This document shows positions 34,796 through 37,765 of a DNA stretch of 64,000 nt, piece by piece. This DNA is from a virus, in IMG/VR virus record IMGVR_UViG_3300044612_001255, positions 44,292 to 108,291 of that record. The stretch is one strand, 5' to 3'. Position 1 is the stretch's first letter, and each line of letters opens with the position of its first letter. Position numbers and translations under genes: made by a program. The notes beneath the pieces were generated by a model, which was given only the letters and a program-made list of their open reading frames with translations, was not told the DNA's origin and searched no databases.

Positions 34796-37765
34796 ATGAA
34801 AGGATGGTTAGATAACTTTGGTAAAGCAGACAACGCTAATGATTCAAACGTTAGCCTTCCTGAAGGTTTTGTTGGACTAGGATATAACACTAAAGGAAGA
34901 AACTATTCTCCTGCATGGGGAGGACAGTTTCAAGGTGGTGGAAAACTTATTCCAGTTTCTCCAATGCAACAGATCACTGGCGAAACACCTACTATTTCCC
35001 CAACTGTCCCATATTTACAAACAAAAGATCCAGCAGAGTTTTATAAGTCTTGGATTCAAAGTCCTGAATATGAACGAAGATTAAAATCTACAGGATACTC
35101 AGATGTTCCTAATAAACAAAGGGTTGATGAACTTTCACAAATAGAACAGGTCAAAAAAGAAAGACTAGGACTTTTAGAAAATATTCAACCTTTAGAATAT
35201 GATCCATCTAAAAGATCTGAAGCTATAATTGATTATTACGATGGGTCAACTATAAATGTAAATCCTTCAGATTATAAAACCTTTTCTAAACAATCTGTTG
35301 AAGCACACGAAATTGCACATGTTGCCACTCCTACAAGTACAATGTCTAATGACGAGTTTGGAATTTTTATGGGATCTATGCTTCCTTTAAAAAAACCTAT
35401 AGTGTCTGGTGTACAAGGATCTAAAGAAAGAGAGGCTAGTAAAGAAGCTGTTGGAGATTTTGAACACTTGGGAAAACCATGGGAAGCAAAAGCTGATTTA
35501 GACGCTCTTCGATTCATGATGTACGACAAAGGCATCTATGATATTACAAAAGGAAAGAAGTTTACAGAATCAGATTTTGAAAAAGCAAAACAAAGTTTTG
35601 GGAAAGAAAGAGTTTTCAAAAGATTCACTGATAGAATGGGCAAGAAGAACTTTGTCAACTTGATGAACACTATTGCTAAAGCAGATGGTGAAGAAGAATT
35701 ACCAATGGCAATGGGTGGTATGTCTATTCCTGGTTCTGTAGGATTCACATACGCACGTACAGCTGGTTCTGCTCCTAGTAAAGGAAAGTATGCAAAGAAG
35801 ACGATGGCTTCTGCACAGAATGGTATTATGTCTCCAATGTTATTGGCAAGAAATGTTTTAAACTATTTCTATCCTAATGAAGAAGCTGCACCAACTGTAG
35901 AGGCAGCACCGTCAGACTATAAGAAGGGATTAACAAACGAGCTTCTACAAAGACAAGCATATAAAGAATCAACATTCAATCCAGCTGCTGTTTCCCCAGC
36001 GGGATACAAAGGTCTTACACAGATTGGAGAAGGTGTTTTAGAAGATTATTCTAATAAGAAAGGTGGAAAGAAACTAGATCCATTCAATCCAAAAGATGCT
36101 GTAGAGCTACAGAAGTTTGCAATGAATGATTTATACAATGCTAGCTTCATCAACAAACCTGATCAATCTGATAGTGTAAGAATTGCAAAAACTCTAGCTG
36201 CCTATAATTGGGGAAGAGGGAACCTATCTAATTATCTCAATGAACAAAAGAGTAAGGGTGTAGATATATATGATTCTTACGATTGGTTAAACAACCTTCC
36301 AAAAGAAACTAGCGATTATGTAAATAAGATTCTTCTCCAGGAAGATCCATCATTTAATAAGAACTATAAGAAAGCTTCTACAAATCCAAAATACGAAGAG
36401 GTGACATCTCTGTATGATCAGAAGAAGTTTGGTGGCGACATCCCTTCTGCACAGAATGGTCAAGAAATGAAATTCTATCAGAATGGATTGGATTGGAAAC
36501 CAAAGAGTATGCAGGATGGTGGAATAACTAAAGACAATCAAGGATATTGGAATCCAGAAAATTGGGGAAAGCCTGTAGAAATAGATTCTAATGACATAAC
36601 AATGGAAGGTGTATACGAACCCCTTCTTGGTGTGTCTGACACTGGTGACACTAAGCTAATGAAGCCAGGAAAGAATTATAAATTCAAGGGTAAGAAAGTT
36701 AGAGAGTATCCTGTAGCCCAGTATGGAAAAGGCATACCATTTAAAGATGCTGCTAATAATCCAAAAGATCCAGCAGATCCTATTCGTAAAGATTTGGCAC
36801 CACCTATTAGACCAAAAGCATCTTTTGAAGAACAGAAAAGAATAGCAAAGTTAGAACTTGATAAGTATGGTTATACATCAGACCAACGTAAGAATTACGT
36901 TAAAGGTAAATCTGAAAAAGCATTCAGGAATATTGTTCCTCAAGGATATGGAGATTTAACACAAACACTTGATAGAATTGATAGATATGAAAAAGATTTA
37001 GGAAGAGATCCAATGGAGACTCTATGGTATGGTTCAGAAAGTAGTTCAACAGGAAAACCAATATATTACGATCTTCCTAAAAGAGATGATGCTTTTGCTT
37101 TGTATCTAGGGTTGCCTCAAAAAAATAAAAGCTTTGGCATTTCTGAATATCAACCAGGCGATTCGAAAGAAAACAAATACTATTTCAAACCTAATTACTT
37201 AGATGAAAATTTAAAAAATCGTCTAGTTGCTTCATATTTTGACAATGTGGATGATAATGAAAATGTTTATATAGCAAATGAAAGAGGTGATGCTTTTCCA
37301 CAAAAAACTGATTCGTTGGAAAGGGAAGGAGTTCCTTTTGAAAATCCAATGTATGCTGAGTGGATGGTAGATAACCCTCTTGGAGATTTTAAAATGTCCA
37401 AGGGTAAAGATAAAAAGGGTCACTATATTTCTATTTATGATGAATGGGATTTGAATCCTTTTAAAGAAGGTAAAGGTTCATCAAGTAATCCAGCTGCTGC
37501 TACATTAAAAGCATTTGCTAAAATGAAAGGAGTAGACGTGAGTGATGACCTAGAAATTTCAAAGCTTTTTGGAGCTGGTAAACCTTTTGAGATATATGAT
37601 AGAATTTATTATGATCCAAAAACTAAAAAAGTGATTCCTGAGAAAAGAAATGGTGGTGGTGTGGGAATCAATCAATTAGATGCTCAACCCATGAAAAAAC
37701 TAAATCAATTACTTAACTTTACAAATAACCCAGACAAGGATAACTGGCTGGATAAATACAACTGA
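34796..37765 (+). CDS. multidomain cargo protein: zincin-like peptidase + SLT lytic transglycosylase + unknown domain
   Basis: HEIAH (35306-35320) with a downstream E. SLT motifs KESTFNPAAVS, GLTQI, LAAYNWG. Confidence 0.8.
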   Translation: MKGWLDNFGKADNANDSNVSLPEGFVGLGYNTKGRNYSPAWGGQFQGGGKLIPVSPMQQITGETPTISPTVPYLQTKDPAEFYKSWIQSPEYERRLKSTGYSDVPNKQRVDELSQIEQVKKERLGLLENIQPLEYDPSKRSEAIIDYYDGSTINVNPSDYKTFSKQSVEAHEIAHVATPTSTMSNDEFGIFMGSMLPLKKPIVSGVQGSKEREASKEAVGDFEHLGKPWEAKADLDALRFMMYDKGIYDITKGKKFTESDFEKAKQSFGKERVFKRFTDRMGKKNFVNLMNTIAKADGEEELPMAMGGMSIPGSVGFTYARTAGSAPSKGKYAKKTMASAQNGIMSPMLLARNVLNYFYPNEEAAPTVEAAPSDYKKGLTNELLQRQAYKESTFNPAAVSPAGYKGLTQIGEGVLEDYSNKKGGKKLDPFNPKDAVELQKFAMNDLYNASFINKPDQSDSVRIAKTLAAYNWGRGNLSNYLNEQKSKGVDIYDSYDWLNNLPKETSDYVNKILLQEDPSFNKNYKKASTNPKYEEVTSLYDQKKFGGDIPSAQNGQEMKFYQNGLDWKPKSMQDGGITKDNQGYWNPENWGKPVEIDSNDITMEGVYEPLLGVSDTGDTKLMKPGKNYKFKGKKVREYPVAQYGKGIPFKDAANNPKDPADPIRKDLAPPIRPKASFEEQKRIAKLELDKYGYTSDQRKNYVKGKSEKAFRNIVPQGYGDLTQTLDRIDRYEKDLGRDPMETLWYGSESSSTGKPIYYDLPKRDDAFALYLGLPQKNKSFGISEYQPGDSKENKYYFKPNYLDENLKNRLVASYFDNVDDNENVYIANERGDAFPQKTDSLEREGVPFENPMYAEWMVDNPLGDFKMSKGKDKKGHYISIYDEWDLNPFKEGKGSSSNPAAATLKAFAKMKGVDVSDDLEISKLFGAGKPFEIYDRIYYDPKTKKVIPEKRNGGGVGINQLDAQPMKKLNQLLNFTNNPDKDNWLDKYN
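35808..35824 (+). repeat. 17-bp direct repeat copy 1 (CTTCTGCACAGAATGGT)
   Basis: Identical to 36444-36460. Confidence 0.9.
36444..36460 (+). repeat. 17-bp direct repeat copy 2 (CTTCTGCACAGAATGGT)
   Basis: Identical to 35808-35824. Spacing is 636 bp, in frame. Confidence 0.9.

Follow-up and report, generated by a model that had tools for sequence, protein, structure and literature searches.

The mosaicism of phage polyvalent and ejected proteins is already known, and among podoviruses an SLT domain is carried by the internal protein gp16 of T7. In polymorphic toxins, junction motifs (VENN in CdiA, PxxxxDPxGL in Rhs proteins) stand between the constant part and interchangeable modules, and such a border motif is thought to ease recombinational replacement. 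Modular phage evolution, with 'linker' homologies at the module borders, was reportedly described by Susskind and Botstein in 1978. To our knowledge, there is no description of modular payload swapping in crAss-like cargo or podovirus internal proteins. Polyvalent proteins are polypeptides of phages and conjugative elements that combine unrelated effector domains (Iyer, Burroughs, Anand, de Souza and Aravind 2017, PMC5512222); searched by term, that paper yielded neither the word 'linker' nor a passage on a junction motif.

The modular protein analysed here, P0001, is encoded in a window of 64,000 nucleotides. The window belongs to an uncultured crAss-like phage whose 108-kb genome is complete, has direct terminal repeats and 36% G+C, and encodes a crAss-like TerL. 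Its gene lies two genes (two small ORFs) downstream of a 1686-aa ORF (28396-33456) with weak, collinear similarity to the crAss001 muzzle protein gp44 (E 7e-6 and 1e-3), and is followed by ORFs of 919, 922, 5054 and >1832 aa. This order, after the muzzle-like gene and ahead of giant proteins, agrees with that by which crAss-like cargo is recognized, the cargo genes gp45 and gp46 of crAss001 sitting at the corresponding position after the muzzle (PMC10172136). From this synteny with the crAss001 cargo genes we infer that P0001 may be packaged in the virion as cargo. P0001 resembles crAss-like cargo also in being largely disordered by prediction with short conserved segments, but differs from gp45 in that the two have no detectable sequence similarity (best BLASTP E 0.83). 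Its putative muralytic domain would suit passage through the cell wall, as in the podovirus internal SLT proteins. We place P0001 among the phage polyvalent proteins by its payloads (putative zincin-like peptidase and SLT) and by the ART-PolyVal domain of its relatives; it combines at least two unrelated effector domains (the zincin-like domain, the SLT domain and a C-terminal module) and is encoded in a complete phage genome. Both P0001 and the polyvalent proteins have a strongly mosaic architecture among relatives, and for both delivery by the virion is presumed. Unlike polyvalent proteins as described, P0001 has a conserved chassis that is mostly disordered by prediction, fixed in-frame sites and a joint that is repeated as peptide and as DNA.

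Our results suggest that P0001 is probably a virion-borne polyvalent protein with a largely disordered chassis, whose three or four fixed joints accept payloads in frame, the repeat being the joint (Table 1). The chassis consists of a leader with GWLD(N/K)(F/Y), the segments …VGFTYART…YAKKTxASAQNG and xEMKFYQNGLDWKPK, a small beta domain, and a tail with GGWLDKY at its end. In P0001, site 0 is occupied by a zincin-like peptidase domain, site 1 by a putative SLT lytic transglycosylase and site 3 by a C-terminal module. The 3' tail of every site-1 payload codes for GG-x-(I/V)-P-x-A-Q-N-G, which echoes the end of the preceding chassis segment, and the 17-bp direct repeat is the joint sequence at either payload border.

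Table 1. Features of the P0001 gene (window coordinates; payload functions are predictions)
Feature	Coordinates	Strand	Content or basis
Gene of the modular (polyvalent, cargo-like) protein P0001	34796..37765	+	989-aa ORF, from ORF list and translation
Chassis segment 1, leader, aa 1-58	34796..34969	+	MKGWLDNF … GRNYSPAWGGQF
Site-0 payload, zincin-like metallopeptidase domain, aa ~59-300	34970..35695	+	Predicted fold and HEIAH
Chassis segment 2, aa 301-343	35696..35824	+	MGGMSIPGSVGFTYART…YAKKTMASAQNG, left joint at its end
Left joint repeat	35808..35824	+	xCT TCT GCA CAG AAT GGT = A-S-A-Q-N-G
Site-1 payload, putative SLT lytic transglycosylase cassette, aa 344-555	35825..36460	+	3' tail encodes FGGDIPSAQNG
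Right joint repeat	36444..36460	+	P-S-A-Q-N-G
Chassis segment 3, aa 556-640	36461..36715	+	QEMKFYQNGLDWKPKSMQDGG, then small beta domain to site 3
Site-3 payload, C-terminal module, aa 641-952	36716..37651	+	92% identical in P0008
Chassis segment 4, C-terminal tail, aa 953-989	37652..37765	+	…GINQLDAQPMKKLNQLLNFTNNPDKDNWLDKYN and stop codon

The 17-mer CTTCTGCACAGAATGGT occurs in exactly two copies on the plus strand, with 0 mismatches and 636 bp (212 codons) apart; as the preliminary description stated, both copies are in frame in the P0001 ORF and flank a 212-codon segment with the SLT domain. They encode (A/P)-S-A-Q-N-G at residues 338-343 and 550-555, form the longest exact direct repeat within the gene, and contain the joint core GCACAGAATGG, which is found nowhere else in the genome. 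Chance, or codon bias acting on a repeated pentapeptide, could be invoked at 36% G+C with biased codon usage and a preference for CAG in glutamine codons before asparagine, but 100 dinucleotide-preserving shuffles give an expectation of ~0.01 matches with <=2 mismatches, and the probability of identical DNA given the shared pentapeptide and the codon usage of the window is ~0.013 for 15 nt and ~0.006 for all 17 nt. Since P is ~0.006-0.013, the identity at synonymous positions that had been pointed out earlier does exceed what peptide conservation and codon bias predict. Bracketing by the motif moreover recurs in relatives and with other payloads, and against these comparative data an origin by chance is scarcely credible. 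The preference for CAG within the motif is weakened as proof of selection on DNA, being partly a context effect of glutamine before asparagine (CAG share 42-50% in other genes). A further copy with 1 mismatch is present on the minus strand (56562-56578), inside the 5054-aa ORF, where the coding strand reads PFFAE; it looks unrelated.

The segment between the repeat copies is a putative SLT lytic transglycosylase by profile and motifs. Pfam PF01464 (SLT) matches residues 376-488 with 43 bits, where the cut-off is 21.3 (E 3.9e-11), and the lytic domains PHROG 669, 2013 and 342 match as well. Family 1 lytic transglycosylases have a catalytic glutamate in an E-S motif together with GLxQ and AYNxG motifs; the corresponding residues here are KEST at 390 (E391-S392), GLTQI at 406 and AYNWG at 469. 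The payload is predicted to cut peptidoglycan during ejection. In the AF2 model of P0001, only residues 77-293, at site 0, fold with confidence (pLDDT ~85-90); they include HEIAH at 171-175, with H171, E172, H175 and E187 nearly invariant. The top structural matches of this zincin-like domain are nearly all zincin peptidases, though at Z <=7.2, with PepO 4iuw at Z 7.2 (rmsd 3.7, 154 aligned) and neprilysin 4cth at Z 7.1. Foldseek on the full P0001 model gave no match at E<=0.001 (E >=0.3), and the domain has no Pfam or PDB sequence match. The site-3 module has no Pfam or PHROG match. ART-PolyVal (PF18760) is absent from P0001. It does occur on the C-terminal side of the SLT payload in two homologues, P0026 (49 bits; residues 809-960, ahead of the C-terminal tail) and P0101 (32 bits).

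The chassis amounts to ~240 aa and is without a Pfam or PHROG match; AF2 predicts it to be mostly disordered, the joint regions included. Its leader (predicted pLDDT <50) shows 84-100% identity to that of relatives in which an unrelated domain comes next. In relatives the leader ends in GGIIP(S/I)AQNG; in P0001 the joint at site 0, which follows the leader, has degenerated to GGKLIPVSPMQ. Segment 2 is 83-100% identical in relatives at the amino acid level, and its DNA is 91-97% identical over 75 nt among loci with differing payloads. Segment 3 is conserved family-wide and includes, at QEMKFYQNGLDWKPKSMQDGG, site 2, which is empty in P0001. Its small beta domain (…ITMEGV…GVSDTGD…PGKNYKFKG…EYPVA) is the sole part of the minimal chassis predicted to fold (pLDDT 80-90), with no clear match in the PDB (best Z 5.9). 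Locus L001 is near-identical through SMQDGG and unrelated beyond. The C-terminal tail shows 91-97% amino acid and 88-97% codon identity in relatives and is nearly invariant in alignments A1 and A3. We considered whether payloads sit at NG turns, as in beta-hairpins of a folded chassis, but the AF2 models do not support this idea, the chassis being disordered in them except for the small beta domain; as the confidence is low, the chassis might nonetheless fold within an assembly.

Homologues of P0001 at E<=1e-3 numbered 1163 among the candidates scored. By phmmer the chassis family comprises 2,893 clusters at 50% identity, with proteins of 228-2,080 aa in which the chassis is broken into 1-5 stretches; a stand-alone minimal chassis of 243 aa exists. 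Among 50,697 phage records searched by tblastn for cultured relatives of P0001 and the minimal chassis there were just a distant match to an SLT domain in Stenotrophomonas phage C121 and a match over 62 aa in Leptolyngbya phage Lbo-JY46. A literature search for AQNG, SAQNG, WLDKY and GWLDKY returned nothing phage-related among the matches listed, WLDKY and GWLDKY being absent from these.

Across the family, payloads are inserted at discrete sites of the chassis, and alleles of site 1 may be empty, alternative or tandem. Insertions of >=40 aa number 256 and are distributed over site 0 (70), site 1 (81), site 2 (98) and site 3 (at least 7). The empty allele, which the preliminary description had predicted, reads …KKTMASAQNG/QEMKFY… (the stroke marks the junction) and occurs in 20 of 120 homologues, P0008 and P0054 being the closest proteins with this allele; across the wider family the empty state is the commonest. 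The SLT unit measures 210-215 aa in ~35 homologues; longer SLT forms span 620-806 aa, and other homologues lack the unit or have something else in its place. At least four further payload types occupy the same joint, along with tandem payloads: a 145-aa KGVQKN payload is found in 3 of 120 homologues, an IIADKI payload occurs as 192 aa and as a 274-aa unit before the SLT unit in the tandem IIADKI and SLT forms seen at site 1, and inserts of 404 aa likewise start with IIADKI. Eighteen metagenome contigs with an identical 20-nt left joint comprise seven empty alleles, five with SLT, three with IIADKI, two with EEDIKT and one with KGVQKN. In Ga0315909, empty, SLT and IIADKI alleles were found together, each on a separate contig. 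The motif [AK]Q[NDT]G flanks both sides of 56 of the 81 site-1 payloads (69%). Single-linkage clustering of the motif-delimited segments was abandoned, nearly everything having merged. These alleles, together with breakpoints at the joints, bear out the earlier view of the SLT segment as a cassette delimited by the motif.

The cassette does not, however, appear to be the recent insertion that had been proposed: SLT lies between two joints in ~35 homologue clusters, down to ~60% identity, and joint copies in relatives differ by 0-2 nt, which speaks against a fresh footprint. Because the arrangement is common to diverged relatives with so few differences between copies, the repeat is a stable feature of the family. 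An exact 17-bp direct repeat around a discrete insert is what a mobile element would leave as a target-site-duplication-like footprint, or what a dedicated site-specific, integron-like site might look like. Both are very improbable given the many diverged relatives with this arrangement, the prevalence of the empty state in the wider family, an insert that holds an in-frame SLT domain and nothing else, and the lack of terminal inverted repeats or hairpin-like ends at the insert. A transposable element would have terminal inverted repeats and an internal transposase gene, but the 636-bp insert is one open in-frame SLT segment. Integron-type cassettes have imperfect inverted-repeat (attC-like) sites at their ends; no inverted repeats are found at or near the joints, and the genome has just two copies of GCACAGAATGG. 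Inteins begin with Cys, Ser or Thr and end in His-Asn followed by Cys, Ser or Thr, whereas this insert runs from Ile344 to Gln553-Asn554-Gly555, is followed by Gln556 and carries an SLT domain. Translational bypassing as in T4 gene 60 involves matching take-off and landing codons, a short untranslated gap and a stop after take-off, which does not fit a gap of 636 nt that is free of stop codons and encodes a conserved SLT domain.

Mosaic maps show that homology between relatives begins and ends at the joints; loci L006 and L024, for instance, are ~95% identical up to the joint, beyond which the IIADKI payload is present in one of them and the site is empty in the other. The two copies are identical at 17/17 positions also around a different payload (L100) and around another SLT allele (L112), and match at 15-16/17 in other alleles. 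We infer that the likeliest way for co-infecting phages to exchange payloads would be to recombine within the conserved DNA of chassis and joint, with payloads gained, lost or swapped by homologous or short-homology recombination; a deletion from one 17-bp copy to the other would restore the empty allele. On either side of site 1, chassis DNA is conserved over at least 60-75 nt (86-97% identical) and could act as homology arms, so that the crossover need not fall inside the 17-mer. This flank conservation is also consistent with the joint being a short linear motif for docking to the portal, the tail barrel or some other part of the virion, or simply a flexible linker, with exchange through the long chassis flanks and the 17-mer uninvolved. 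The high conservation of a chassis predicted to be disordered also agrees with docking, as does crAss001 gp45, which is ordered only as short peptides on the portal and tail barrel (PMC10172136). However, tandem payloads are connected by the short joint alone, with no long chassis flank between them, and in two different payload families the similarity of the joint DNA exceeds what the peptide requires; we regard this alternative as possible, though rather unlikely.

Special conservation of the chassis at the DNA level can be ruled out for close relatives, since the fraction of identical codons in chassis segments (0.70-0.92) is close to that in neighbouring genes (0.72-0.77), and control peptide blocks show synonymous conservation equal to that of the motif. 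The Ser codon of the motif alternates between TCT and AGT across the family, and distant lineages retain the joint peptide with different codons. The main constraint therefore falls on the peptide, and a purely DNA-level role of the joint, as a recombination site, is not supported. This would also be expected if the joint were chiefly a proteolytic site, with a polyprotein cleaved at …AQNG, whether by the zincin-like domain that it contains or by a different protease, so as to free the individual payloads, the DNA repeat being a by-product of needing the same cleavage site at both payload ends. The conserved part of each junction is its N-terminal side only (GG-x-I-P-x-AQNG), the next residue being free; the motif lies in linkers predicted to be disordered; a zincin-like domain is present in cis; and processing of polyvalent proteins was predicted by Iyer et al. 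(PMC5512222). Yet the motif is also present in the minimal chassis, which is without the zincin-like domain, and in many other chassis proteins without a peptidase domain, and in the empty allele there is nothing to separate. With site 1 occupied, the left copy often takes a relaxed form (AQDG, AQKG, AQIG, AQTG), and the excess DNA identity of the copies is left unexplained. We consider it unlikely that proteolysis is the chief role of the joint. In the payload-exchange model that we favour, the peptide may also be retained for a role at the protein level in the disordered linker, as a virion docking or processing site. More speculatively, and with considerable doubt, the joint might be of dual use, with the peptide as a processing or docking signal by which the chassis could carry and release any payload, and the DNA core GCACAGAATGG as a preferred crossover point at which co-infecting phages could reshuffle payloads in frame, a protein-coding analogue of an integron cassette array inside one gene and without a dedicated recombinase.

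P0001 and the polymorphic toxins share a short conserved peptide and DNA sequence at the border of constant and variable parts. In the toxins the motif precedes one C-terminal toxin and orphan cassettes lie nearby, whereas the joints of P0001 are internal, multiple and doubled around each payload; no silent donor cassettes are present in the genome, where the joint core occurs only twice. As in the modular theory, short conserved border sequences lie where mosaic relatives switch homology, but in P0001 the joints fall within one reading frame, at the level of domains rather than genes, and are conserved as peptide too.

The locus provides a concrete grammar of exchange: a conserved, disordered delivery chassis, few fixed sites, a doubled joint, and natural alleles that may be empty, alternative or tandem. 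The family of the chassis is large, unannotated and almost confined to uncultured phages. Should recombination or processing be guided by the joints, these would account for the fast turnover of anti-host effectors in such phages, and would offer a simple rule for the discovery of payloads, namely any sequence between two joints.

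The 17-mer CTTCTGCACAGAATGGT occurs twice on the plus strand as exact copies, both in frame with the ORF for the 989-residue modular protein P0001, and is the longest exact direct repeat within that gene. The preliminary description of such a repeat around a lytic transglycosylase domain is confirmed: the copies are 212 codons apart (one copy counted), and the interval contains the Pfam SLT domain (residues 376-488, 43 bits against a cut-off of 21.3), in which E-S, GLTQI and AYNWG motifs are found. Only 0.01 matches to the 17-mer are expected in shuffled sequence, even with two mismatches permitted; given the shared pentapeptide and the codon usage of the window, the probability of identical DNA is ∼0.013 for 15 nt and ∼0.006 for 17 nt. 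The repeat is real, and chance does not explain it. A repeat search of the gene found no inverted repeats at the segment ends; a transposon, an integron-type site, an intein and translational bypass each fail on their defining features. A 16/17 match on the minus strand (CTTCTGCAAAGAATGGT) lies inside a 5054-aa ORF, whose coding strand reads PFFAE there; such a match would be expected less often by chance, but nothing ties it to the joint, as we call the repeat and its SAQNG peptide.

Coordinates of joints, ORFs, conserved chassis segments and insertion sites
Feature	Position	Strand	Motif or description	Insertions	Occupant in P0001
Left joint copy	35808-35824	+	A-SAQNG, residues 338-343
Right joint copy	36444-36460	+	P-SAQNG, residues 550-555
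P0001 ORF	34796..37765	+	989 aa
Upstream ORF	28396-33456		1686 aa
Next gene	37767-40526	+	919 aa
Giant ORF	43339-58503	+	5054 aa
16/17 match to 17-mer	56562-56578	-	CTTCTGCAAAGAATGGT
Chassis part 1			leader with (G)WLD(K/N)(Y/F) and GRNYSPAWGGQF
Chassis part 2			MGGSxPGAVGF(T/M)YART...YAKKTxASAQNG
Chassis part 3			xEMK(F/Y)YQxGLDxKPK...
Chassis part 4			small domain ...ITMEGV...GISDTGD...EYP(V/M)A...
Chassis part 5			tail ...LDQLxNFTN...GGWLDKY
Site 0	HMM 65-89			70/256	HExxH domain
Site 1	HMM 115-124		SAQNG joint	81/256	SLT
Site 2	HMM 135-149		after KPKxISxxG	98/256	empty
Site 3			after EYPVA	at least 7/256	310-aa C-terminal module without a Pfam or PHROG match

Minimal relatives of ∼240 aa (e.g. 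locus L027:5941-6669, 243 aa) consist solely of the segments conserved in P0001, the chassis, for which Pfam and PHROGs hold no model and give no match. Against 1.84 billion cluster representatives the chassis recovered 2,893 proteins at E≤1e-3 (898 at E≤1e-30), ranging from 228 to 2,080 aa, with the chassis split into one to five stretches. Insertions of ≥40 aa (n=256), placed on the chassis HMM, sit at discrete positions, and the motif [AK]Q[NDT]G is found to the left of 63, to the right of 69 and on both sides of 56 of the 81 insertions at site 1. The chassis has fixed, in-frame insertion sites, and the inserted domains, or payloads, come with a 3′ copy of the joint. Where site 1 is occupied (e.g. 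in the homologues P0127, P0183, P0205 and P0047), the left joint is often relaxed to SAQDG, SAQTG, SAQKG or SAQIG and the right copy adjoining xEMKFYQ remains AQNG; AQNG plus the chassis segment after it may therefore form the functional unit.

Several observations concern the other sites. The site-2 payload of the homologue P0008 (residues 366-829) shares 23% identity over 274 aa (E 3e-4) with the site-3 module of P0001 (686-931) and is a distant paralogue of it, so that related payloads can occupy different sites. In P0026, an ART-PolyVal domain is found C-terminal to the SLT payload, in the region that this module occupies in P0001. A ∼330-nt indel in the leader (gene alignment columns ∼138-493) between the otherwise ∼95% identical genes of loci L024 and L006 points to an additional insertion position 5′ of site 0. 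The chassis relatives L033:5881-6597 and L049 have an N-terminal extension with a CxC...CxxC zinc-ribbon-like motif before an internal GGWLD(N/S)Y; similar GGWLDKY-like motifs are seen where proteins end and where site-2 payloads start (...ISKNGGWLDKY...), and seem to form a second type of junction motif.

A search of 5.8 billion proteins with P0001 gave 1163 homologues among the candidates scored, with very uneven query coverage. Both the empty allele and the alternative domains that the preliminary description proposed to seek in relatives were found. Among the best 120 homologues, the predicted deletion product ...AKKT(M/K)ASAQNG/QEM(K/R)FYQ... is present in 20, an SLT unit of 210-215 aa in ∼35 and a 145-aa payload starting KGVQKN in three; several carry a payload starting IIADKI, either alone (192 aa) or as a 274-aa unit followed in tandem by an SLT unit, with an extra ...GGEIPSAQNG joint between the two. 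Inserts of 404 aa likewise begin IIADKI, and other homologues have SLT with extensions (620-806 aa). Metagenome contigs with the 20-nt left joint (n=18) comprise seven empty, five SLT, three IIADKI, two EEDIKT and one KGVQKN allele. The suggestion of a recent insertion is not supported: the arrangement of SLT between joints is old and widespread, and across the wider family most often the site is empty.

At the DNA level, the joints are where homology to relatives switches. Over most of nt 1-1710, L001 shows 93-100% identity to the P0001 gene, bar a short 64-80% patch just after the first joint, and beyond SMQDGG (site 2) it is unrelated; what L009 shares with that gene is confined to chassis segments 2 and 3, the SLT payload and the tail, and the empty allele L025 shares the leader, segment 3 and tail. 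L006 and L024 are ∼95% identical up to the joint, where L006 has an IIADKI payload and L024 none. Payloads are naturally polymorphic for presence, absence and replacement, with breakpoints at the joints. In several loci with differing payloads, identity is 91-97% over the 75 nt 5′ of the joint and 86-94% over the 66 nt 3′ of it. The compared phages are close relatives overall; where amino acids are identical, the fraction of codons that are identical too is 0.70-0.92 for chassis segments and 0.77 and 0.72 for the upstream and downstream genes, respectively, and the synonymous conservation of control peptide blocks equals that of the joint motif. Conservation of chassis DNA is therefore not special in itself. 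The paralogous left and right joint copies, however, are identical at 17/17 positions in the window, L112 (SLT) and L100 (a different payload) and at 15-16/17 in other alleles, a likeness that exceeds expectation. SLT homologues from distant lineages have degenerate joints with differing codons on either side (LPKAQNG ... LPKKQTG; PKYQGG; PKYQDG), and the Ser codon alternates between TCT and AGT across the wider family; the deep constraint therefore falls on the peptide, and within the clade of P0001 the copies share DNA too.

These patterns are consistent with co-infecting phages exchanging payloads by recombination in conserved chassis and joint DNA. Since the whole genome contains no copy of the joint core besides the two, exchange would have to be between genomes, and because nothing but the short joint connects tandem payloads, at least some events would need short-homology crossovers there. 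Deletion between the 17-bp repeats would yield the empty allele.

The minimal chassis is modelled (AlphaFold2, family alignments) as disordered save for a small beta domain at residues 140-205 (pLDDT 80-90), which has no clear match in the PDB (best Z 5.9). The P0001 model is confident at residues 77-293 only, and the joints sit in regions with pLDDT <40. Nearly all of the top structural matches to 77-293 belong to the zincin metallopeptidases, led by PepO (4iuw, Z 7.2, rmsd 3.7, 154 aligned) and neprilysin (4cth, Z 7.1); Zmp1, ECE-1, M1 aminopeptidases, lethal factor and thermolysin rank next. Taking these together with HEIAH at 171-175 and the conserved E187, we read this region as a zincin-like peptidase; the Z values are modest and the fold evidence moderate. 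Iyer et al. proposed that domains of this type process polyvalent proteins (PMC5512222).

The source record is a complete 108,291-bp virus with direct terminal repeats (G+C 36%; the window is bases 44292-108291), in which genes for terminase, portal and major head were found. The terminase most resembles that of Leptolyngbya phage Lbo-JY46 (40%), with lower values for Cellulophaga phages phi17:2 and phi4:1 (31%) and for gut phages of the crAss-like group (26-30%). The upstream 1686-aa ORF has weak, collinear similarity to the crAss001 muzzle protein gp44, whose gene is followed by those for cargo proteins gp45 and gp46 and then giant RNA-polymerase proteins (PMC10172136). Downstream of P0001 are ORFs of 919, 922, 5054 and >1832 aa. 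The P0001 gene occupies the position where ejected cargo proteins are encoded and, by analogy, its product is predicted to be in the virion; it has no sequence similarity to gp45. The 5054-aa ORF has a Dda-like helicase/exonuclease V region near its C-terminus (PHROG 325, E 3e-70), and both it and the >1832-aa ORF that follows encode giant multidomain proteins placed like crAss-like virion RNA polymerase genes. A sequence that may represent a further joint of this type, ...EEAQNG/ITKFAQQGGG, occurs at residue ∼256 of the 919-aa, cargo-like product of the next gene, and its motif is kept in the orthologue at L007 (on one contig with L025). In several divergent loci (L026, L027, L033, L073), the 15-18 nt before the chassis ATG translate as SNLLQ(I/V); the DNA adjoining the start codon on its 5′ side is therefore conserved and might serve as a promoter or ribosome-binding signal.

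In the literature and databases searched, neither the chassis with its fixed joints nor the duplicated joint motif is described; a full-text search on the motifs yielded nothing phage-related in the 15 of 51 papers that were listed, and no full-length relative was found in cultured phages. Neither 'linker' nor a passage on junction motifs occurs in the term-searched text of the defining polyvalent-protein paper (PMC5512222). In functional terms P0001 is grouped with the phage polyvalent proteins, its virion location being predicted. The joint peptide, which lies within a disordered cargo protein, is a candidate site of cleavage during processing or, alternatively, a candidate docking or linker motif. 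Other podovirus internal proteins open peptidoglycan during ejection and, by analogy, the SLT payload plausibly does the same.
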